A DNA stretch of 64,000 nucleotides from Candidatus Altimarinota bacterium (GTDB taxonomy: Bacteria > Patescibacteriota > Gracilibacteria > UBA1369): assembly GCA_963677745.1 (NCBI GenBank), contig OY782391.1, positions 1,271,836-1,335,835 of the forward strand, in the 5' to 3' direction. The notes beneath the pieces are model-generated. The model searched no databases and had not been told where the DNA came from. It saw nothing but the letters and a program-made list of their open reading frames with translations. Every line of letters starts with the position of its first letter. Position 1 is the first letter of the stretch. The position numbers and the translations under genes are program-made. This document shows positions 8,994 through 64,000 of this stretch, in pieces.

Positions 8994-9068
8994 AGGGGAT
9001 TCGCCAAGTGGTAAGGCACCGCCCTTTGGAGGCGGCATTCGGGGGTTCGAATCCCTCATCCCCTGCCA
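8994..9068 (+). tRNA. tRNA-Gln (anticodon TTG)
   Basis: Acceptor stem AGGGGAT/ATCCCCT, D-loop AAGTGGTAA, anticodon arm CCGCC-CTTTGGA-GGCGG, T-loop GTTCGAATC, encoded CCA. Confidence 0.97.
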
Positions 9069-9991: not shown

Positions 9992-10084
9992 ATGTCCGGC
10001 CTGGTAATTGCCCATTTCTTTTAAACAAAGGAGGTGACGCACCAGGCAGAACCTCTATCGCAGAGCTTCAAGGAGGAGGAGAAC

Positions 10085-10996
10085 TTGACAAGCTGGACAG
10101 ATGGAAAGATACCCCTTGCCAAAGGTGCAAGGACCAAGCGTCCCAACCCCAACTTCGAACAGAGGAAAGAACAGGAGGAGCTACGAGAACTGGTACTGCT
10201 GCAGGGCGGAAATCCCGGAGCAGTGACCCGTCTGCCTCCTTCCCGTCGAGGTTCCAGGGGAGGCGGGAGAAGGCTTAGTCGCCAGGAAAGCCTGGCTGCG
10301 GAGCACGAGCGCGAGCTCAAGGAATGTCTCCAGAAAGGAGTGGCAGAGGTCTATCACCTCGAGGACTACCGGCAGGCAATTCCGGGACAACAGGGCGAAC
10401 AATCAAAAACCCCAACGGTTGCAGATGTACGGCAGCCGATGGAGAGCCCTGCGGTTTCCGCGGAAGTGCGCCCCGTCCAGGTGGAAGACCCGGATCCATT
10501 CTATTGGAGCAGACCGGAGTCCTACTCACCGGAGGCGATCGAACAGAGAAGAAGGGAAGACGAGGCCAAAAGGCTGGGTGATGCCGAATGCAGGGCGGCC
10601 CGCGCAGAGATGGAAGCTGCCGTAAACCGCGTTTGGCAGAAAACACTCAGTCTCTATCGAAGCGCCTCAGGGGTCAAACAGCGACAACGCCAGTCGACCG
10701 CCGACAACGATCCAACCCAATCCGATGCGGAAGGTACGGATTGCTGTCAGGCTCCCGATTGCGTCAGTCACCTTCAGCTCAAGCCGGAAGAAACCATGCC
10801 GGTAGAGCCGCCCGGACCCCGCATGGCCATCGGCTCAAGTCACAATGTCAGAGCCTCAACGCTCAAGGCCAGGAAGACCAGGAAAGAAAAGAAAGATGCC
10901 GGTAAAGCGGCAGTTCGCCTGGTCAAGGAGGCCAAGCAGCAGCTGAAGGACGCTCGACAGGAACAGAGGCTCGTCCGGGCCAATCGCCAGAAGTAA
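10085..10996 (+). CDS. GC-rich orphan protein, charged and low-complexity, with a K/R-rich C-terminus
   Basis: The ORF track gives 10034-10996. The in-frame TTG at 10085 follows AAGGAGGAGG (10070-10079) and is the more likely start. The gene has its own promoter and terminator. Confidence 0.6.
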   Translation: MTSWTDGKIPLAKGARTKRPNPNFEQRKEQEELRELVLLQGGNPGAVTRLPPSRRGSRGGGRRLSRQESLAAEHERELKECLQKGVAEVYHLEDYRQAIPGQQGEQSKTPTVADVRQPMESPAVSAEVRPVQVEDPDPFYWSRPESYSPEAIEQRRREDEAKRLGDAECRAARAEMEAAVNRVWQKTLSLYRSASGVKQRQRQSTADNDPTQSDAEGTDCCQAPDCVSHLQLKPEETMPVEPPGPRMAIGSSHNVRASTLKARKTRKEKKDAGKAAVRLVKEAKQQLKDARQEQRLVRANRQK

Positions 10997-11052: not shown

Positions 11053-11104
11053 TAAATTGGGTGAATTTACTGTATAAAAGTTTTGACATAAATACCAAAA
11101 TACC

Positions 11105-12634
11105 ATGCCAATTCCCTATGTTTTAATGATTCTGGACGGTTGGGGCTACAGTCCTGAAACCGCCAACAACGCCATTGCCCAGGCCAAAACACCAAATATC
11201 GACGGGCTGATTGAGAAATATCCCCACGGCCTTTTGAAAGCCAGCGGTTTGGACGTGGGGCTGCCTGAAGGGCTGATGGGTAATTCCGAAGTCGGGCATA
11301 CCAATATCGGGGCGGGCCGCATCGTTTATCAGGATCTAACCCGCATCGATCAGTCTATCCAGGATGGCTCATTCTTCACTAATCCGGTTTTAGGCAAAGC
11401 CTTTGAACTGGCTGCCGAAAAGGGGACCAAGTTGCACCTGATCGGGCTGCTTTCGGACGGAGGCGTTCATTCTCATATTCGTCACCTGGAAGCTCTTTTG
11501 CAGCTGGCCCAAAACAGGCAGTTTAAAAAACTGTTCGTTCACCCCGTTTTTGACGGACGCGATACCGCCCCCATGATCGGTGAAACTTTTCTTCAGCAGT
11601 TATTGGGATATTTTGAAAAGTACGGAGTGGGCCGGCTGGGCACGCTTTCCGGCCGTTTTTATGCCATGGACCGGGATACCCGCTGGGAGAGAATTGAAAA
11701 AGCTTATAACGCTCTGGTGTTGGGGCAACCGGCATTGGGCTCCGATCCACTCGATTACCTCAAACAGTCCCATCAAAAAGGCATCGGTGACGAATTTATT
11801 GAACCCGTTTGTGTCAGCCCCGACTCCACCATCGACGAAGGGGATGTAGTAATTTTCTTTAATTATCGCTCAGATCGCGCCAGACAGATGACCAGGGCTT
11901 TGACCGAAAAAGAATTTACCGGTTTTACCAGACAAAAATGGCCCCTGCTTTCCCAATATGTCTGTATGACTGAATATGATCAAAGTTTTCAGTTGCCGGT
12001 GGCTTTTCCCTCGCCTGCACTGGTCAACAACCTCGGCGAAGTTATTTCCAAAAACGGACTGAAACAGCTGCGAATAGCCGAAACAGAGAAATACGCTCAT
12101 GTGACGTTTTTTGTAAACGGCGGCCAGGAAATTAAATTTCCCAATGAGGACCGTATTCTGATTGATTCGCCCCGCGATATTGCCACCTACGACCAAAAAC
12201 CGGAGATGAGCGCGGTTCCGGTCACGGAACGGCTTTTGCAGGAACTGGACCGCGACATCTATGATTTCGTGATCATCAATTTTGCCAACTGTGACATGGT
12301 TGGGCACACGGGAATGATGGACGCCACCATCAAAGCGGTGGAAGTTGTGGATCAATGTGTGGGAAAAATCGTGGAAAAAGTCTTACAAAAAAAAGGTCTG
12401 GTTTTTCTGACAGCCGACCACGGTAATGCCGAAGTGATGATGGATGCGCAGGGCAGACCCCAGACCGCTCATACCTCCAATCCTGTGCGCTACATAATTA
12501 TCTCGGAGCAATATCCCCTGGGCAGTCTGAAAACGCATGACGGTCGGCTGGCTGATGTCATGCCAACGCTGCTCACATTGATGAATCTCCCCATTCCGCC
12601 AGAGGTGACCGGTCAGAAATTGCTGGATAATTAA
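11105..12634 (+). CDS. gpmI: 2,3-bisphosphoglycerate-independent phosphoglycerate mutase
   Basis: Motifs LMILDGWG, MGNSEVGH, GRFYAMDRD, AETEKYAHVTFF, NCDMVGHTG, TADHGNAE. Confidence 0.97.
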   Translation: MPIPYVLMILDGWGYSPETANNAIAQAKTPNIDGLIEKYPHGLLKASGLDVGLPEGLMGNSEVGHTNIGAGRIVYQDLTRIDQSIQDGSFFTNPVLGKAFELAAEKGTKLHLIGLLSDGGVHSHIRHLEALLQLAQNRQFKKLFVHPVFDGRDTAPMIGETFLQQLLGYFEKYGVGRLGTLSGRFYAMDRDTRWERIEKAYNALVLGQPALGSDPLDYLKQSHQKGIGDEFIEPVCVSPDSTIDEGDVVIFFNYRSDRARQMTRALTEKEFTGFTRQKWPLLSQYVCMTEYDQSFQLPVAFPSPALVNNLGEVISKNGLKQLRIAETEKYAHVTFFVNGGQEIKFPNEDRILIDSPRDIATYDQKPEMSAVPVTERLLQELDRDIYDFVIINFANCDMVGHTGMMDATIKAVEVVDQCVGKIVEKVLQKKGLVFLTADHGNAEVMMDAQGRPQTAHTSNPVRYIIISEQYPLGSLKTHDGRLADVMPTLLTLMNLPIPPEVTGQKLLDN

Positions 12635-15711: not shown

Positions 15712-15757
15712 AATCAAGCCATTATTCGGCTTAAATATAACCTAATTCAGCACTACT

Positions 15758-16036
15758 ATGGCTCATAAAAAGGCCGCAGGTTCCACAAAAAACGGTCGCG
15801 ACTCAGTTGCCAAGAGACTCGGCGTAAAGATCTTTGGAGGGCAGCAGGTAAGGGCCGGCAATATTATCCTCAGACAGAGGGGGACCCAGTTTTTCCCCGG
15901 TGAAAATACCGCTCTCGGCAAAGACCATACCATCTTCGCTCTGATTGACGGAGAAGTGAAATTTTCCGAAAAACAACTTACCAAGTACAACGGCCAGGTC
16001 CACAAGGACAAGTTTGTACATGTTTATAAGGCCTAA
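15758..16036 (+). CDS. rpmA: 50S ribosomal protein L27
   Basis: [16 protein letters not shown]...RLGVK...IILRQRGT. Confidence 0.98.
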
Positions 16037-32607: not shown

Positions 32608-32645
32608 AACACGGCAAAACTACTCTTTATTACTGGAATTTCCCT

Positions 32646-33128
32646 ATGTCCAATCTACTAATTCAGAAAATAGAAAAGAAACAGATTAAACCTGATCTGC
32701 CGGTCATAAAAGCCGGTTACACCGTCCGCGTACATCAGAAAATCAAGGAAGGTGAAAAGGAAAGAATCCAGATATATGAAGGTTTGGTGATTGCCCTGAA
32801 TCACGGACACGGTCCCAGCAAAACCATGACTGTCAGAAAAGTGGTTGAGGGAATCGGAGTGGAAAAAATATTTCCGTTGAATTCACCGGCCGTAGCCAAG
32901 ATTGAAGTTGTCAGAATCGGCAAGGTTCGCCGTGCCAAACTGTACTATATGCGCGACATCAGCGGTAAAGCCGCCAGATTGAAGGAAATGCTGGTGGGAA
33001 AAGGTGCTGAAGTGCTTGCGGATAAGGAACTGGAAGCGGAAAAAGTTGCCGGGGTGAAAAAAGTAGCGGAAGTTGAAGCGACTCCGGTTGAAGACACTAC
33101 TGAAAAATCCGAGCAAGCAGAGCAATAA
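32646..33128 (+). CDS. rplS: 50S ribosomal protein L19
   Basis: [43 protein letters not shown]. Confidence 0.97.
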
Positions 33129-33136
33129 CCCTCTGA

Positions 33137-33769
33137 ATGAGCCCTAGAATAGCCAAGAATCAGACACCAGTACCTTCAGACAAAGTAATAATTGCCGGAT
33201 TGGATGAAGCGGGACGCGGCCCATGGGCCGGCCCGATTGTTGCCTGTGCTTATATAGAAACCAGGCCGGTCACAGGAGTCAAAATAACCGATTCCAAAAA
33301 ACTCAATGAAGCGCAGCGTCAGGAAGCCTATGCGGAGCTGATCACCCATGGTCATTATGGAGTGGGGTTTGCCGAAGTGTCTGAGATAGACAAACTTGGT
33401 TTGGCCAAAGCCAATCGGCTGGCCTTTCGAAGAGCTCTGGAAGGTCTGAAAATCAAACCTGATCTGATCCTGATTGATGGGCGGGACAAAATTGACCGCA
33501 GAACGACCTTGGGAATACCGTTCAAAACGATAATACGGGGCGACTTGGCTATCAGATCGATTTCCTGTGCTTCGATCATAGCCAAAGTGACGCGTGATCA
33601 ATTGATGGATAAACTGGCCAAAAAATATCCCAAATACCGATTTGAAGAGCATAAAGGGTATGGTACGGCCCTTCACCGGAAACTTCTCAAACAATTTGGC
33701 GCCAGTGAAATTCACCGTCAGAGTTTTAAACCGGTCAATCATTTGCGCCAGACCGCAATTTTTGAGTAA
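33137..33769 (+). CDS. rnhB: Ribonuclease HII
   Basis: GLDEAGRGPWAGP, DSKKL, ASIIAKVTRD, HKGYGT. Confidence 0.96.
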   Translation: MSPRIAKNQTPVPSDKVIIAGLDEAGRGPWAGPIVACAYIETRPVTGVKITDSKKLNEAQRQEAYAELITHGHYGVGFAEVSEIDKLGLAKANRLAFRRALEGLKIKPDLILIDGRDKIDRRTTLGIPFKTIIRGDLAIRSISCASIIAKVTRDQLMDKLAKKYPKYRFEEHKGYGTALHRKLLKQFGASEIHRQSFKPVNHLRQTAIFE

Positions 33770-33797
33770 TAATCAGGAATGCCCGGTCAAATTTCTG

Positions 33798-34916
33798 TCA
33801 AAGCAGCTCTTTCAGCAGTTTTTCGTGTTCAAAAAAGTTGTAAGTGCTTCGTAGTTTTTGGCTTTCCAGCTGGTTCCGTAGCGAAACATAATTAGTCTGG
33901 GTCTTTAAAAAAGACTTTTCCAGGGCAGTCAGATTGAAACTTTCATAATCCAGACAATATTCGCCCAAATTAATTGTCTGCAAAAAGGATTTGACCTTCT
34001 GGCTGTAGGAAAGTGCTATAAATGGAGTCACTGCAAGAATCGAAAAAATAATCGAATGAAGTCGCATTCCAATCACCAATTCACTTCTGGAAATAATTTC
34101 CAAAACCTGTGAAAAATCCTGAACAGTTTTTAAGGTCATAGCTTCGGGGTTTACCAGTCTGTCGGCAACTTCGCGGTAACTGACCCGGTCATCGTCCAGG
34201 TCGGTTTGAAAAGGGATAAAAACTGTTTTCAAACGGTGTTTTTCCCATAAATAATCAATCATTCCGGCTACCTGTCCAGAAATTTCTTTTGAATTGCCGT
34301 TGATCCAGGGGCGCAAACTCAAAACAACCTGTTTTTGACGGGTGATGGATTTCTCCTGGTCATAACCTATGCCGAAGGCGGGATCTGCCATTAGATGGAT
34401 ATTCTTTACACCCAGTGATTTTAGTAACAGCTCTGATTGTGAATCCCTGACCGTTACAAGCAAAGCCCGCTTAAACACAGCTGCGGTTAGTCTTCTGGCC
34501 AATTTGCTTTTAAGAGGACCGACGCTTTGGCTGATGCAAATCAATTTTTTATTGAAAATTCTGAACCATATATATTGAACAAACCAGATCCAGACTGCAC
34601 GGGGTTTTTCGTCAGTAAAAAGACCCCCGCCGCCCAATAAAACGATATCTGCCGCCGCCATCCGGGCGATGGTTTTCCATCCGGAGGTAGTAAACCAGAA
34701 ACGAAAAAATGATCTGACGCCGGCCGGGAAATGAAGAACTGCCTGAACTCGAAAATCTGCGGCTGTCTGAGCCGGCTTGGCAGACATCACTGTAATATCT
34801 GAATGTGGCCAGGTTGATTTGATCAGATGTATCAGACCTCCCAAAATCGCATCGTCTCCCAGATTGGATGCTCCATAGTTACCGCAAACCACTATTTGTT
34901 TTTTGTCTGCCGCCAT
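33798..34916 (-). CDS. csaB: Polysaccharide pyruvyl transferase (CsaB family)
   Basis: GNYGASNLGDDAIL, GGGGLF, QSVGP, VRD, DPAF, GMRLHS, SYSQKV. Confidence 0.85.
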   Translation of the reverse strand: MAADKKQIVVCGNYGASNLGDDAILGGLIHLIKSTWPHSDITVMSAKPAQTAADFRVQAVLHFPAGVRSFFRFWFTTSGWKTIARMAAADIVLLGGGGLFTDEKPRAVWIWFVQYIWFRIFNKKLICISQSVGPLKSKLARRLTAAVFKRALLVTVRDSQSELLLKSLGVKNIHLMADPAFGIGYDQEKSITRQKQVVLSLRPWINGNSKEISGQVAGMIDYLWEKHRLKTVFIPFQTDLDDDRVSYREVADRLVNPEAMTLKTVQDFSQVLEIISRSELVIGMRLHSIIFSILAVTPFIALSYSQKVKSFLQTINLGEYCLDYESFNLTALEKSFLKTQTNYVSLRNQLESQKLRSTYNFFEHEKLLKELL

Positions 34917-34988
34917 TGTCGGTGAAATTTGTAATGACTCAACTTTATCTGAATTTAACGAGATGATTAAGCTATATTATAAAAAACA

Positions 34989-35017
34989 TTGACAAAAGAG
35001 TAAAAAAATAGTTTAAT
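34989..35017 (+). promoter_or_regulatory. sigma70 promoter of GC-rich cassette 1
   Basis: TTGACA-17 nt-TTTAAT in an AT-rich context. Confidence 0.7.
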
Positions 35018-35020
35018 TCA

Positions 35021-35396
35021 ATCTTGCTTAAAATTTCCGGAACGGTTGCGGCAAGATTTTGCTCCTTGAAATAAAGGCACAAAGTCCGTACAGCACCTAA
35101 AAAGAGGCTAATTGCTCGACCAATGCTGTCTCTGCTTTTTAATCTGTCCCAAGTGGTCAGGGAAAAAGAGAGGGGTAACCTGGGAAAGCTGTAGCTTCCT
35201 TTAGGTGCTGTACGGCAATGGAAACAAAAGTCTGATCCCGACACATCGGTCGGGCAGACTGGCGGATCTGGCGCTATTTCCAACCTTTCAAGAAGAAGGC
35301 AGCGCAGGTCCGCGTAAGGATTCTGACCGGCTCCGCATGCTGCGGGGCCAGTCTCACTGGTTACGCCGACCCAATGTGGGCGGCGCATGCGAGGAG
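35021..35396 (+). ncRNA. Long structured 5' leader or candidate ncRNA with a boxA-like element
   Basis: Hairpin AATCTTGC/GCAAGATT; TGCTCCTTGAAA at 35060-35071; perfect 16-bp inverted repeat 35086-35101/35200-35215; further hairpins AGTCTG..CCCGAC/GTCGGG.CAGACT and GGCTCCGCA/TGCGGGGCC. Confidence 0.55.
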
Positions 35397-35404
35397 AAAA
35401 CGAC

Positions 35405-36655
35405 ATGAAGCAGAGCATTCTAACCAACCTCGCGGTCCTCGTGTGTACTGCCGTCCTGGTAGCGCTCACGGGGTCTGCGGCTGCTCAGGAGGGGCTCACG
35501 CCCGCCTGGCGGTACCACGCATCAACCGATCTCGGCCTGAGCCACTGCGAGTCCGCCTTCTTCGGAGACGGCAAGGCAATGGTCAACACCGCTCAGATCG
35601 CGAAGTCGACCAACGGGGTAACGATCTCTGGTGAAACGGGTAAGACCGTTCGCATCAGGTTCGTCTGTGAGCGCGCCCAGGAAAAGGGCGCTCGCAGCGA
35701 GCTCTTGAGGATCGGCCCCGAAGGTACGTACAACGCGAACCCCGGCGGCGCCGGTATGTCGGTCGGCTTCGACAAACCCACTGATGATCCCAACAAGACA
35801 GCCCTCCACAAGGCGCTGGCGAAGGGACGGGAGTGGGTGTTCACGGTCGGCGCACAGCCCCAGACCATCGTGCTGACCTGGAGTGGTGAGTTGGGGAGCG
35901 ACAAGTTGAGCGTAACTGTTCAACCGTTCGCACCTCCTCCCACCGTTCCCCAGGTGCAGGAAATGATCGCTCCGGTCGAGCAGAAGGCGGATGAAGCGCA
36001 GACGACTGCCAACGACGCCTACAGCCGGGCAGCCCACGACAATCTCGAGAAGTACCGCTTCATCGCCGTCACGCTCGGCTACCAGCTGGGATTGAACACG
36101 CTCGCTCGAGACGGCGGCAACGCGGACATGGGGGCAAATCTGAACATCGACTACAGCTTCGGACCGGCAGGCGCCTTCAAGGGGCTCACCGGAATGGTAG
36201 CGATGCTCAACTTCGTCCAGAAGCCGGTCATGGAGGCTCCCAATGCGACCGGCTACAACAACTGGATCGACTCGCAGACGCTCTACGTCGGCCCGAAGAT
36301 CGGGTTCGACTACATGCCGGCCAAGTGGTTCGATCTCAGGGTGTTTGCTTCGCTGGGCGCGTTCATCAGCTTCGACGGGTCGGTGCCGCTGACCCAGCTT
36401 CCCGACGGGAGACTCTTCACGTCGGAGGCACAAACGAACACGGCGCTCGGCTGGATGCTCATGGCACAGCCGGGCTTCGTGATCGGCAACTTCCTCATTC
36501 AGCCCCAGATCGGCATCGGTGGCACGATGACCAAGGTGCAGACCGAACTGGGCCCGGACTTCGTCTGCTCGGCGCACGAACCCAACTGCGCCGAGCGCAG
36601 AGACGGGTTCGTGTTCAGGGTGCATGGCGGCCTGAACGCGGGAGTGATCTTCTAG
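35405..36655 (+). CDS. GC-rich secreted protein with a predicted C-terminal outer-membrane beta-barrel
   Basis: SD GAGGAG 8 nt before ATG 35405 (track start 35387). Sec signal ending AAA-Q, short coiled coil (VEQKADEAQTTANDAY), amphipathic beta strands, and a C-terminal GLNAGVIF ending in Phe. Confidence 0.7.
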   Translation: MKQSILTNLAVLVCTAVLVALTGSAAAQEGLTPAWRYHASTDLGLSHCESAFFGDGKAMVNTAQIAKSTNGVTISGETGKTVRIRFVCERAQEKGARSELLRIGPEGTYNANPGGAGMSVGFDKPTDDPNKTALHKALAKGREWVFTVGAQPQTIVLTWSGELGSDKLSVTVQPFAPPPTVPQVQEMIAPVEQKADEAQTTANDAYSRAAHDNLEKYRFIAVTLGYQLGLNTLARDGGNADMGANLNIDYSFGPAGAFKGLTGMVAMLNFVQKPVMEAPNATGYNNWIDSQTLYVGPKIGFDYMPAKWFDLRVFASLGAFISFDGSVPLTQLPDGRLFTSEAQTNTALGWMLMAQPGFVIGNFLIQPQIGIGGTMTKVQTELGPDFVCSAHEPNCAERRDGFVFRVHGGLNAGVIF

Positions 36656-36662
36656 GCCAGTA

Positions 36663-36756
36663 CCGGAGGCCGGCAGCGAAAGTAGCAGCGTCAACACGCT
36701 CGCACTTCCGCTTCCGCACGGCCGAACGCAGCTTATTAGTAGCTGCCGGCCTCCGG
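36663..36756 (+). repeat. Perfect 15-bp intergenic inverted repeat
   Basis: CCGGAGGCCGGCAGC (36663-36677) / GCTGCCGGCCTCCGG (36742-36756). Confidence 0.9.
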
Positions 36757-36826
36757 GAATAACAAGTGATTCGGCCCGCTCGTAGTAGGGCCAACGAAAG
36801 CCCCTACGGGCACTCATGGAGGAAAC

Positions 36827-38386
36827 ATGCTTCGAAGAAAAGGCGGGCCGGCCTTGTGGCTGGCCCAGGTAGTGACGAACCTGAGACGACCGCTGACAAC
36901 GCCTCTGGGCCTCAGCATCTCTCTCACCATCGCAGCGCCGGCCGCCCTCGCGGGCTTGACCGGCTGCGAAAACAATCCGAGTCCGGCCGCGTGCTTGAAC
37001 AGCGGCGACCCGTTCTGCGACCAAGAGCTGGACAACAACGGCAACGGCGGAACGGGCAACTCGGGGGCCGGCGGCAACACCAACGTGGCCTGTGCCGACA
37101 ACCCCAACTACGGGAAGGACTGCCAACTCCCCGGGGGCGGCGTTGGCCACTGGGTCTGCGCCGGCAACGGCATCGACCTCGTCTGCGCCGGAAGCGGCAC
37201 AGGCGGCAGCGGTGGTGGCGCAGGCGGCAACACGGCCGGCAACGGCGGGTCTGGTGGTGGCGAGTATAACTGCGCCACGGACCCGAACAACGGCGATCCG
37301 TGCATCGCGGCTGATGGCACCAACGGCCACTGGGGTTGCAACGGGACGGGCTCTGCCCTGTTCTGTTACTCAGATGGCGGTGCCGGAGGCTCTGGCGGGA
37401 CGGGCGGAGGCGGGCAGTACAACTGCGCCGACGACCCGCAGCTTGGCACCCCCTGTACGACCAGCGATGGGCATCAGGGCGCCAAGGTCTGCAACGTCTC
37501 CGGCACGGGGCTGGTCTGCCAGTGCACGGTCAACTGCAACGGAACGGGCGGCTCGGGCGGCGGCGGAACGGGCGGTAGCGGCGGTGGGGAGACCTACAAC
37601 TGCTTGACCGATCCCGATCTCGGCGACATCTGCGTGATGGGCGTCGGGATCTGCAGCCGCACGGGCATGTATGTCTGCAACGCGGCCGGCGATGGCCTGC
37701 GCTGCAGCACCAATGCGGGTTCGCCCAACCCGGTCGGAGAGGTCTGCGCCAACGGCCTCGACGATAACTGTGATGGAGCCAAGGACGAACAGCCCTGCGT
37801 CAACGGTGGCGGGGGCGGCTCCGGCGGCACGGGCGGCGGTGGTGGATCGGGAGGCAGCGGAGGAGCACTCAGCTGCACGGACGCCAGCTCGATGCAGGTG
37901 ATGGCGGTGGGCGCAAGTTCGCTGCACATCCTGCTGATGGGCCAGGCAGTCTCCAATTCCAATCCGTGGATCAAGACGCTGACCAACAACCAGCTCTTCA
38001 CCGCGTCTTCGGAAGGCGGGCTGTCTCTCTCCACCACGGCTGGCTCCTTCAACTACTTCGAGCCCAACGTCGGGGGCGGAGGTGATCCAATGCCGATGGT
38101 AGACACGCTCTACTGCCGGCAGATCGGCATCGATCCTCCCGTCCCGGCGAGTTGCAATGCGACGGTGATCGGCGATCGGCACAGCACGGAGTACATGGCG
38201 TCGCTGCGCATCGCCTGGCAGTGCTGGGACGACACCAGCACCTGTCCGATCGAGCTGATCGGACATGTCCCGGGCGATCTGTTCGCTCTGCGTGGCAAGC
38301 CTGCCCCCGGCACTCCCCTGAGCCTCCCCGACTACGGCTACGAGGAGTTCGGCCTCGGTCAGGTCCCCCCGCTCTGCGCGCCGTAG
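36827..38386 (+). CDS. GC-rich Cys/Gly-rich lipoprotein with four C-x-x-D/N-P-x-x-G-x-x-C repeats and a MopE-like metal-binding motif
   Basis: SD GGAGG, lipobox LTGC, GGxGG linkers, EVCANGLDDNCDGAKDE. Confidence 0.8.
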   Translation: MLRRKGGPALWLAQVVTNLRRPLTTPLGLSISLTIAAPAALAGLTGCENNPSPAACLNSGDPFCDQELDNNGNGGTGNSGAGGNTNVACADNPNYGKDCQLPGGGVGHWVCAGNGIDLVCAGSGTGGSGGGAGGNTAGNGGSGGGEYNCATDPNNGDPCIAADGTNGHWGCNGTGSALFCYSDGGAGGSGGTGGGGQYNCADDPQLGTPCTTSDGHQGAKVCNVSGTGLVCQCTVNCNGTGGSGGGGTGGSGGGETYNCLTDPDLGDICVMGVGICSRTGMYVCNAAGDGLRCSTNAGSPNPVGEVCANGLDDNCDGAKDEQPCVNGGGGGSGGTGGGGGSGGSGGALSCTDASSMQVMAVGASSLHILLMGQAVSNSNPWIKTLTNNQLFTASSEGGLSLSTTAGSFNYFEPNVGGGGDPMPMVDTLYCRQIGIDPPVPASCNATVIGDRHSTEYMASLRIAWQCWDDTSTCPIELIGHVPGDLFALRGKPAPGTPLSLPDYGYEEFGLGQVPPLCAP

Positions 38387-38555
38387 CAGAGCACAATCGG
38401 AGCTTGAGCCCATCGCCGGGTTCGCTCCTACTTCACTTCCTAAACGTGGTGCACGCGGCCGCGACCTGCAAAGGTTCGCGGCCAAGCACTTTCGCCTCGA
38501 CTGGTAGTCTGGGTCTTCCCTCATGGAGGACGCCGGAACTCGTCGTGGCTTAACC

Positions 38556-38597
38556 AAAGGCCCCGCCCATTGCGAAAGCGATGTGGCGGGGCCTTTT
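38556..38597 (+). terminator. Intrinsic terminator of cassette 1
   Basis: AAAGGCCCCGCC...GC-GAAA-GC...GGCGGGGCCTTTT; the sequence turns AT-rich immediately afterwards. Confidence 0.8.
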
Positions 38598-38629
38598 CAA
38601 ATCTATTTAAAAAATCTCTCACAAAAGAC

Positions 38630-38658
38630 TTTACAAAACAATTATAATATGTTAAAAC
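38630..38658 (+). promoter_or_regulatory. sigma70-type promoter of GC-rich cassette 2
   Basis: TTTACA-17 nt-TAAAAC with a TG extension; an alternative TATAAT lies at 38643-38648. Confidence 0.5.
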
Positions 38659-38661
38659 ATG

Positions 38662-38943
38662 ATCTTGCTTTGAATCTAATAAATTAGGTTCCTGGCAGAA
38701 TCTTTGAAAACTCATTGGATAAAGGCATCGGGATAACCGAATTGTTTCTAACAGAAAACAGGAGCTACGCATCTAGAAAATCAGCAACGACCTGCGCTTA
38801 GAAACAGCCCGGTTATCCCGATCATATCGGAAAAATCTTACCGGCGTCGCATCAGATGCCGGCGTCAGTGTCAGTAATAGTAGTCAACGTCCGTCTCAAA
38901 TTTGGTCGCGCCTGAAAGCCGCGACTCACCAGTTACCAGGAGG
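38662..38943 (+). ncRNA. Structured 5' leader with a boxA-like element (same layout as 35021-35396)
   Basis: ATCTTGCTT; hairpin GAATCTAAT/ATTAGGTTC; ATCTTTGAAAACT at 38700-38712; ATAAAGGCA; stem ATCGGGATAACCG..TGTTTCTAA / TTAGAAACA..CGGTTATCCCGAT (38727-38822). Confidence 0.55.
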
Positions 38944-38951
38944 AAACAGTC

Positions 38952-63508: not shown

Positions 63509-63548
63509 TACCGTGATTTAATTATAATTCAGCAGCAATAACAAAAAC

Positions 63549-64000
63549 ATGAACAGAACACATAAAAACAACGAACTGAGACAGTCGGATATTGGAAAAA
63601 CTGTTACTTTATGCGGTTGGGTGCATCACCGGCGTGACCATGGCGGCGTGATTTTTATTGATCTGAGGGATCGTTACGGCCTCACTCAAATAGTCACTGA
63701 TCCGGAGAAACTGCCTGATGCCCATCAGAAAGCCGACCAAGTCCGTCCTGAATATGTGATAGAAATACGCGGCGTGGTGAGGGCCAGACCCGAAGGTCAG
63801 GATAATCCCAATTTGGAGACCGGTTTGATCGAGGTGTTAATTGACAATTTCAAGATTATCAATGAATCAAAAACACCTCCTTTTGAAATTGACCATGAAT
63901 CTTTTGTCAACGAAGAACTGCGTCTAAAATACCGTTATCTGGATCTGCGCCGGGAAAGACTTAAAAACAATATTATTGAAAGGCACCGCATTGTAAAATT
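63549..64000 (+). CDS. aspS: Aspartate--tRNA ligase (5' part, runs off the window)
   Basis: Translated by hand as MNRTHKNNELR...VTLCGWVHHRRDHGGVIFIDLRDRYGLTQIV...EELRLKYRYLDLRR. Confidence 0.95.
   Translation, partial: MNRTHKNNELRQSDIGKTVTLCGWVHHRRDHGGVIFIDLRDRYGLTQIVTDPEKLPDAHQKADQVRPEYVIEIRGVVRARPEGQDNPNLETGLIEVLIDNFKIINESKTPPFEIDHESFVNEELRLKYRYLDLRRERLKNNIIERHRIVK

Follow-up and report, generated by a model that had tools for sequence, protein, structure and literature searches.

The window analysed here is a stretch of 64,000 nt from a Candidatus Altimarinota bacterium (GenBank assembly GCA_963677745.1), the final 64 kb of one 1,335,835-bp contig (OY782391.1, positions 1,271,836 to 1,335,835). 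The genome, which we label G000, comprises 1.34 Mb at 47.4% GC and is 97.9% complete. At about 35.4–39.7 kb the window holds an island of three GC-rich genes, which we call isl1, isl2 and isl3. The GC content at third codon positions (GC3) is 0.81–0.82 in these open reading frames (ORFs), as against about 0.42–0.59 in their neighbours, and island codon usage looks foreign, with NNC and NNG codons favoured; the genome encodes 47 tRNAs, readers of C- and G-ending codons among them. The relatives in which we found the island (given other G-numbers, and to be taken as kin rather than as independent replicates) bear the names Candidatus Peribacteria or Peregrinibacteria, of the candidate phyla radiation (CPR). 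What we say of function throughout is inferred from sequence.

A sequence-only reading of the window had proposed that two styles of translation initiation coexist there, one with Shine-Dalgarno (SD) motifs ahead of GC-rich genes, each island SD being preceded by a hairpin, and one without SDs in highly expressed native genes. All four of the SD motifs it quoted were re-found in the sequence, each 4–8 nt ahead of an in-frame start codon (Table 1), three of them before the island genes and the fourth, AAGGAGGAGG, before a highly charged 303-aa ORF with no Pfam or NCBIfam family. The SD-less leaders quoted for rpmA, rplS, gpmI and aspS were also all present at those genes. For isl1, the true start is probably the ATG at 35405, which opens a signal peptide (MKQSIL...), and not the ATG at 35387 that yields the longest ORF. 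Hairpins do precede the island SDs, ending 5, 6 and 11 nt upstream, but only the isl1 leader clearly outdid shuffled sequence, and the pre-SD hairpin was rejected as a rule for the GC-rich class described below (19 class genes versus 150 native genes, p = 0.16).

Across the whole genome, the two initiation styles were borne out, and the SD style tracked high GC3. A simple custom ORF caller, limited to genes of 90 aa or more, gave 1069 genes that together cover 91% of the genome, and SDs were scored as the duplex energy between the 20 nt upstream of the start codon and the 16S tail, with cut-offs of −6 or −8 kcal/mol. An SD of −6 kcal/mol or better preceded 18 of the 23 genes with GC3 ≥ 0.70, compared with 23 of the 1030 genes with GC3 < 0.65 (Fisher odds ratio 158, p = 1.8e-23). 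The sequence-only reading had suggested correlating anti-SD pairing with GC3 genome-wide; the SDs were indeed concentrated at high GC3, but no gradient was found (Spearman rho −0.07), and the relation is one of a discrete class. Neither of the contrary outcomes it had named was seen, SD strength being linked to GC3 genome-wide and native SDs being few. Among the genes with GC3 ≥ 0.65 (n = 39), 41% of called starts reached −8 kcal/mol versus 2.9% of their internal ATGs, and a peak of the SD core motif, at −16 to −9, appeared in the GC-rich class only.

The leaders of the 1030 native genes (GC3 < 0.65) had a mean duplex energy of −0.86 kcal/mol versus −3.56 at internal in-frame ATGs, and −8 kcal/mol was attained by 1.3% of them versus 6.1% of the internal-ATG controls. 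Since native leaders fall below this control, SD-like sequence is depleted from them, beyond being merely absent. When the best SD over every candidate start in the first 30 codons was taken, natives reached −8 kcal/mol in 11.4% of cases versus 17.7% for a matched control. Positions −15 to −1 of native leaders are 8–11% G (22% genome-wide) and 40–46% A. The initiation regions of the class are more structured than native ones (−9.5 versus −5.5 kcal/mol, p = 3e-6), their upstream 60 nt contain 52% GC versus 36%, and the intergenic space ahead of class genes is typically 200–500 nt versus a native median of 87 nt. A scan for the strongest SD over every start codon was dominated by internal and spurious positions and was used only for rpsU, the gene for ribosomal protein bS21, which stood near the top rank.

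Table 1. Features of the island and of the genes compared with it (window coordinates, except for the last row; aa, amino acids; MFE, minimum free energy; z, score against shuffled sequence)
Feature	Position	Strand	Remarks
isl1, 416-aa exported protein	35405-36655	+	GC3 0.81-0.82; signal peptide
isl2, 519-aa protein, Gly-rich and Cys-rich repeats	36827-38386	+	GC3 0.82; lipobox-like LTGC (by eye)
isl3, 246-aa protein	38952-39692	+	GC3 0.81-0.82; signal peptide; lipobox-like ASGC (by eye)
SD GAGGAG of isl1	35391-35396	+	8 nt to ATG 35405; duplex −8.7 kcal/mol with 16S tail
SD GGAGG of isl2	36818-36822	+	4 nt to ATG 36827; −9.3 kcal/mol
SD AGGAGG of isl3	38938-38943	+	8 nt to ATG 38952; −10.3 kcal/mol
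SD AAGGAGGAGG	10070-10079	+	5 nt to in-frame TTG 10085
303-aa highly charged ORF with its SD	10070-10996	+	TTG 10085; GC3 0.62
rpmA start, SD-less native-style leader	15748-15760	+	ATG 15758
rplS start, SD-less native-style leader	32635-32648	+	ATG 32646
gpmI start, SD-less native-style leader	11095-11107	+	ATG 11105
aspS start, SD-less native-style leader	63540-63551	+	ATG 63549
Hairpin upstream of isl1 SD	35364-35385	+	ends 5 nt upstream; MFE of −75..−14 segment −30.1 kcal/mol, z −2.2
Hairpin upstream of isl2 SD	36778-36811	+	ends 6 nt upstream; z −1.2, not significant alone
Hairpin upstream of isl3 SD	38904-38926	+	ends 11 nt upstream; z −0.4, not significant alone
Promoter-like TTGACA, 17-nt spacer, TTTAAT upstream of isl1	34989-35017	+	read by eye
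Structured 5′ leader of isl1-isl2 unit	35018-35222	+	16-bp closing stem 35086-35101 / 35200-35215
15-bp perfect hairpin between isl1 and isl2	36663-36756	+
Terminator-like GC hairpin and TTTT after isl2	38559-38598	+	by eye, putative
18-nt perfect inverted repeat bracketing isl3	38708-38725 (5′) and 39824-39841 (3′)	+	arms 1098 nt apart
Long hairpin in isl3 leader	38727-38822	+	25-nt arms, 88% complementary
Hairpin after isl3	39763-39802	+
Contig ends inside homologues of the 800-aa class protein, 29%-GC relative	G003:C4:292249-293238, G003:C6:1-1005, G003:C2:7-1476, G003:C5:19725-21197

The genome carries a single 16S gene. Inspection of its 3′ end, the check that had been proposed for the anti-SD, found GGATTACCTCCTTTCT, with CCUCC intact, and CCTCC is kept in all 11 family 16S genes whose sequence reaches the 3′ end (26 family genomes including G000, 15 with a 16S match). 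The sequence-only reading had proposed that the cassette mRNAs are tuned to an SD-dependent ribosome; with only one 16S gene, any such specialisation would have to lie in the ribosomal proteins. The word CTAGGAG directly follows the 16S 3′ end and is identical in all 11 family sequences read (G000:C1:144335-145832, minus strand; L081-L089, L092); its GGAG could, by base pairing, fold back onto the CCUCC of the anti-SD. An SD-like word also follows the 16S gene of Bacillus subtilis, so this arrangement may be an ordinary one.

On the protein side, rpsU is present, and its leader, GAAAGGGGGTAAT, lies 8 nt ahead of the ATG. This extended SD, of the form GAAAGG(A/G)GGTGAT (10–11 bp, −12.6 to −17.6 kcal/mol), recurs in 20 of the 24 family genomes with a bS21 match, and in two further genomes the start appears to have been mis-called, GGGTGA lying just upstream. 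Matches to bS21 were found in 23 of the 25 other family genomes, 16 of them above the Pfam cut-off. Other families of the same taxonomic class yielded 23 genomes with a match (L123-L145); in 13 of them rpsU likewise has an extended SD (≤ −12 kcal/mol), a feature that may thus reach beyond the family. Genes near rpsU in those families look SD-poor too, a hint drawn from a small sample of 50 ORFs that includes shadow ORFs.

The sequence-only reading had taken the island for a foreign cassette, a view that did not survive comparison with relatives. A homologue of isl1 (26–47% identity) occurs in 10 of 24 same-family genomes by whole-genome search and in none of 16 genomes that each represent a different other family of the order. 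In all 11 related loci (those of the 10 genomes and of one 91-kb metagenome contig) it adjoins the pyruvyl-transferase gene, and the seven loci that include both flanks run pyruvyl transferase, isl1, isl2, isl3, rmlA, except that G017 gave no isl3 match; a second metagenome contig, of 2.2 kb, holds isl1 and isl2 only, without flanks. A word search of 5.8 billion proteins returned two matches to isl1, one of them itself, and a profile of nine homologues found 21 representatives of the family among 1.84 billion proteins; neither search yielded a relative outside the family. By ORF listing the three island ORFs stand alone between the flanks, with no mobility genes, and no tRNA gene lies at the island borders (the three in the window lie at 8994, 17215 and 57327). 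In three out of four public DNA runs (two studies), single contigs cross both GC junctions with no differences, and the GC step is therefore not an assembly chimera; one of these runs may be the window's own source.

Composition and SDs recur along with gene order. Island GC is roughly 55–72% per locus versus about 25–55% in the flanks, and across eight genomes island GC3 is 0.56–0.87 versus 0.16–0.64 in native flank genes, the island value being nearly independent of that of its carrier. In these eight genomes most island genes are led by an SD and flank genes are not, one in G001 (−12.2) excepted. Automatic start choice gave SD-less picks for isl2 of G001 (−3.2), isl3 of MG79 (+2.9) and isl3 of G014 (+1.2); for the last of these an SD-led start was found 5′ of the automatic pick, and isl2 of G014 has a weak AAGGA only (−4.9). 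In a 29%-GC relative, none of the 235 native genes on a 293-kb contig (median GC3 0.17) reached −8 kcal/mol. The only complete GC-rich genes there, located with a GC-rich-segment scan, are those of the island, beside a contig-end fragment of another class gene.

We compared a tree of seven concatenated flank proteins with one of isl1, the isl2 C-terminus and isl3. The two trees share the genus clade, with support of 100 and 99 respectively, as well as the split uniting G003 and G024, and island descent thus appears mainly vertical, with exchange within the genus possible. Between genera, conserved residues used the same codon in a fraction of 0.38 of cases versus 0.37 expected in one comparison and 0.47 versus 0.47 in another, the expectation being independent draws from each gene's codon usage. 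Fractions so near to expectation indicate that synonymous sites have largely turned over while GC3 stayed high. In three relatives an extra small GC-rich, SD-led lipoprotein gene lies on the far side of the pyruvyl transferase (L012:5988-6554, L011:11277-11834, L016:8125-8625); in G000 the corresponding gap (33769-33798) is too small to hold it.

The island genes belong to a class of about 20 genes in G000 with GC3 of 0.70–0.82 and SDs 4–9 nt from the start codon. Five others of these genes were searched for in relatives; their products are a lipoprotein of 1319 aa, an exported protein of 800 aa, a Pro-rich protein of 336 aa, an FHA-domain protein of 436 aa and a further protein of 366 aa. Homologues of each, found in 1–12 of the genomes searched, are GC-rich relative to their surroundings and led by an SD wherever a full-length start could be read, so that all six class loci tested, these five and the island, behave alike. 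The 1319-aa lipoprotein (L044:2302-6261; G000:C1:511801-515757) contains 25 copies of the MopE Cys motif PF11617 (E = 1.6e-141); an upstream GTG (C1:511747) lies behind an extended GAGGAGGTGAT, and homologues in relatives have open frames of up to 2473 aa. A crude signal-peptide test, which missed two evident lipoproteins, scored 10 of 19 class genes as export-like versus 190 of 1030 natives, an enrichment with p = 0.001. Native exported proteins have normal GC3 and an SD in 2% of cases (at −6 kcal/mol), so export alone is not the determinant. Many class genes are lineage-specific or Cys-rich, and the class also includes ordinary-looking proteins of the membrane and the cytoplasm: major facilitator superfamily (MFS), CDP-alcohol transferase and FHA proteins. 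The 29%-GC relative has at least two GC-rich copies of a homologue of the 800-aa protein, and four of its contigs terminate within them; assemblies seem to break at class genes.

None of isl1, isl2 and isl3 belongs to a Pfam or NCBIfam family. An AlphaFold2 model of isl1 (28-row alignment, mean predicted local distance difference test score 80.7) shows an N-terminal beta-sandwich, a 30-residue helix and a C-terminal 8-stranded barrel-like domain. For residues from about 220 to 416 the Foldseek neighbours are Ail, OmpX, OmpA and NspA, the top 12 all being such barrels (E about 1e-5, target TM-score 0.57–0.71), and the last residue of the protein is Phe. No match to Omp85/BamA, LpxC or a secretin was found in the 97.9%-complete genome, in which positive controls were found; on the strength of the model, isl1 seems to be an outer-membrane-type barrel in a cell without an apparent outer membrane. 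Against PF11617, isl2 scored 18.9 bits, under the 27-bit gathering cut-off. The crude signal-peptide and lipobox test did not flag isl2, and scored isl3 as signal-peptide-like without flagging its lipobox. Short contigs and loose ends pile up in the Gly-rich repeats of isl2 (window 37158-37845, runs X4 and X5), which suggests that these repeats vary between strains.

Several RNA and DNA elements surround the island genes (Table 1), and GC-richness reaches into the untranslated parts of the transcripts. In a 10-sequence leader alignment, TTGAC and most of the rest of the promoter-like element are invariant, and we regard it as a putative isl1 promoter; a consensus promoter scan missed it, the second hexamer having no A at position 2. 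A minus-strand sigma-70-type match (TTTACT, 17 nt, TATAAT, 34976-35004), facing the pyruvyl transferase, overlaps it, and this overlap would make a divergent promoter region. The isl1 leader (fold z = −6.3) consists of a 5′ hairpin, a CCUUGAAAUAAAGG hairpin and a closing stem, a perfect 16-nt inverted repeat, around about 100 nt. Nine aligned relatives keep the stem, with changes on both sides at 8 of the 22 predicted pairs, and the leader is a candidate cis-regulatory element. Rfam at gathering thresholds reported three tRNAs only in the window, and at E ≤ 1 gave two sub-threshold microRNA chance matches only in 34900-39950, so the leaders match no known RNA family. The hairpin after isl2 was not called by a plus-strand terminator scan, having four T only. 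Around isl3, bracketing repeats of 15–19 nt have equivalents in six of seven genomes, their arms changing together around a CATTGGA core, and belong to no Rfam family; this pattern suggests pairing between the 5′ and 3′ ends of the transcript (for example as a processing or stabilising duplex) or paired DNA sites.

The explanation we favour, and hold with moderate confidence, is that this otherwise SD-avoiding CPR lineage maintains a conserved SD-dependent translation channel for a set of GC-rich genes. About 98% of genes would initiate without SD pairing, through A-rich, actively G-depleted leaders, and the CCUCC still present in the single 16S would be the pairing partner for the SDs of the class and of rpsU. 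The native mode would depend on an unstructured A-rich leader, one that GC-rich, structured initiation regions could not use; from the greater structure of the class initiation regions we infer that these genes depend on SD–anti-SD pairing, the SD compensating for structure. Such dependence would give the cell a separate channel of translational control. By analogy with Bacteroidia, this channel may be gated by the occupancy of the ribosome by bS21, and the extended SD of rpsU makes a bS21-based switch plausible. The fullest version, which we put forward tentatively and think somewhat improbable, has two channels sharing one rRNA: a default channel that ignores SDs and serves some 98% of genes, and an SD channel, perhaps on bS21-less ribosomes, reserved for a conserved GC-rich regulon that encodes many exported or host-contact proteins and whose GC is actively held, in every lineage, 20–50 GC3 points above that of the remaining genes. 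If it were true, composition and initiation signal would jointly mark a privately regulated gene set. The class would have been inherited vertically since the family ancestor rather than recently imported, with biased gene conversion, or selection on RNA or DNA, keeping its GC high and at a level independent of lineage; because the untranslated parts are GC-rich too, a regional cause (conversion, or selection on RNA or DNA) is favoured over codon selection alone.

Several observations weigh against this explanation. It offers no cause for the persistently high GC. An SD is lacking from five of the 23 high-GC3 genes and present on 23 native ones (some of them start mis-calls), and with exceptions on both sides of the GC3 split the boundary of the class is not sharp; gene calls and start choices are also heuristic, and apart from rpsU the analysis covered genes of at least 90 aa. 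There is no SD ahead of rpsU in G018 and G010. Mapped by coordinates (query 10-58 to 7jil_z 9-59), bS21 has no Tyr near the position of Tyr54, and its C-terminus is basic, ending in KYY; the missing Bacteroidia signature weakens the case for a bS21 gate, which we think somewhat improbable and which possibly does not exist. Within the genus the trees conflict, the island tree joining G001 with G002 (99) and the flank tree G000 with G002 (99), with a long island branch for G000, and some exchange or replacement of island alleles there is conceivable. Within-genus same-codon fractions of 0.53–0.60 versus an expected 0.47–0.48 also indicate that synonymous sites are not fully saturated at that depth.

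An ancient import followed by maintenance, in which the family ancestor received these genes from a GC-rich diderm donor and their GC and SDs were kept by selection or by GC-biased conversion at often-recombining loci, strikes us as unlikely, though well short of negligible. It concerns origin and is compatible with an SD-dependent channel as the present function. The outer-membrane-like barrel, set beside the lack of any match to Omp85, LpxC or a secretin in the genome, fits such a donor, as do the MopE-type Cys repeats and the confinement of isl1 homologues to the one family among those searched. The within-genus tree conflict and the contig breaks in the isl2 repeats may reflect recombination or variation between strains, and GC-richness in untranslated transcript parts is what a regional process predicts. 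Strain variation has also been noted in such Peribacter proteins, in the part of that report available to us (PMC4736985). Against this origin stand the profile search of 1.84 billion proteins, which detected no relatives of a donor, and the ordinary-looking MFS, CDP-alcohol transferase and FHA proteins in the class. It needs an added force to hold GC, and published estimates of the effect of gene conversion on GC in bacteria are far smaller than the +20 to +50 GC3 points of this class.

A recent horizontal acquisition, with a foreign cassette from an SD-using, GC-rich donor retaining the donor's SDs and codon usage, is very improbable. The sharp GC step (about 45% to 62–68%) at both ends and the foreign-looking preference for NNC and NNG codons would suit it, as would the isl1 barrel, which resembles outer-membrane proteins of diderm bacteria, and the MopE Cys motif on isl2 (sub-threshold) and the 1319-aa relative, proteins of a kind for which weak Myxococcus similarity is mentioned in the accessible part of the Peribacter report (PMC4736985). 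Yet the same genes occupy the same place across the family, the trees are largely congruent, GC3 is still high with synonymous sites near or at saturation, homologues outside the family were not found, and border tRNA genes and any further ORFs between the flanks are absent.

We give still less credence to host-directed expression, in which the class would be tuned to the ribosome and outer-membrane machinery of a GC-rich, SD-using host that receives its DNA or RNA, much as T-DNA carries plant signals. The near-independence of class GC3 from carrier GC3 and a BAM-type barrel ending in Phe in a genome with no Omp85, LpxC or secretin found are in keeping with it, and the lineage is thought to be symbiotic in the available text of one report (PMC4736985). 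The cell's own 16S keeps the anti-SD, though, and its own rpsU carries the matching SD, and the transporter and lipid-synthesis enzymes of the class make sense only inside the bacterium. Nucleic-acid transfer of that kind is not known between bacteria, though no search aimed at it was made. Finally, the idea that GC- and purine-rich upstream DNA holds GGAGG-like words by chance and without a role, which the higher GC of class upstream regions might suggest, can be almost wholly discounted given the paucity of such words at internal ATGs of the same genes, the positioned motif peak and the recurrence of SDs on orthologues across genomes of very different GC.

A vertically inherited class at GC3 0.6–0.87, in genomes at 0.16–0.64 and with near-saturated synonymous sites, is hard to square with neutral drift to host composition, and it offers a natural test bed for selection on GC versus biased gene conversion. 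It also has practical consequences: composition-based detectors of horizontal transfer would see class genes as foreign islands; contigs end inside them in at least one relative, and in metagenome-assembled genomes they could be split or mis-binned; and gene callers trained on SD-less native starts may misplace their start codons.

Like horizontally acquired islands, the locus shows a sharp compositional step, foreign-looking codon usage and surface-protein genes. Unlike them, it is syntenic and vertical across genera, has no mobility genes between its flanks, no tRNA border and no donor, and, although its synonymous sites are close to saturation, has not come to resemble its host genome in composition. 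The predicted barrel of isl1, a protein ending in Phe, resembles Ail, OmpX, the OmpA N-domain and NspA, from which isl1 differs in having no sequence-family match, in its added N-terminal domain and long helix, and in its genome, where no Omp85, LpxC or secretin was found. Candidatus Peribacter riflensis, as described in the part of its report available to us, has genomes of 58.5% GC and strain-variable, large Cys-rich extracellular proteins with Myxococcus-like repeats and a proposed role in attachment (PMC4736985). Many class proteins likewise look exported or are Cys-rich; in a genome of 58.5% GC no such GC contrast would show. A term search of that paper's text found no mention of SDs, ribosome binding, GC-rich genes or horizontal or lateral transfer.

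The same species is listed as SD-scarce, in the accessible passages of a survey that files it under lacking a conserved CCUCC (PMC10783764). The family studied here falls in the same candidate class, but CCUCC is intact in all 11 of its 16S genes; the passages in question describe no SD-bearing subset of genes. Another source, available in part, reports bS21 as often absent in Peregrinibacteria (PMC9297842). In the literature searched on SDs in Patescibacteria, Peregrinibacteria and the CPR and on codon usage in Peregrinibacteria, supplements aside, we found no SD-bearing GC-rich gene class reported for this or another CPR lineage.

The closest parallel is with Bacteroidia. In the portions of the relevant papers available to us, the ribosome of Flavobacterium johnsoniae is described as SD-blind unless bS21 is missing, with autoregulation of bS21 (rpsU), whose extended SD forms a 13-bp helix and is the single strong SD described there (PMC7797042, PMC9976891, PMC13000453, PMC13000457). 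The Bacteroidia pocket that sequesters the anti-SD, as given in the accessible part of one of these, involves Tyr54 and a less basic C-terminus of bS21, Phe50, Asn56 and Gln58 of bS18, and a C-terminal extension of bS6 (PMC7797042). The present lineage is similar in that its native genes have A-rich leaders without SDs (in this genome, in 235 genes of a relative and in the flanks in eight genomes), its 16S retains CCUCC and its rpsU has an extended SD, here scored at 10–11 bp. It differs in belonging to another phylum, within the CPR, and in that the signature residues of bS21 are not evident and its ribosome is at most putatively SD-blind. As far as the sources available to us go, Bacteroidia are the only group in which the mechanism of initiating without SDs while retaining the anti-SD has been elucidated, and rpsU is the one SD-using gene there; the same hallmarks now appear in an unrelated, uncultured lineage with small genomes. 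Where F. johnsoniae has that one gene, this lineage has at least 18 further SD-bearing genes in a compositionally distinct, GC-rich class, and the use of SDs by a whole conserved class would extend specialised-ribosome control from a single autoregulated gene to a regulon.

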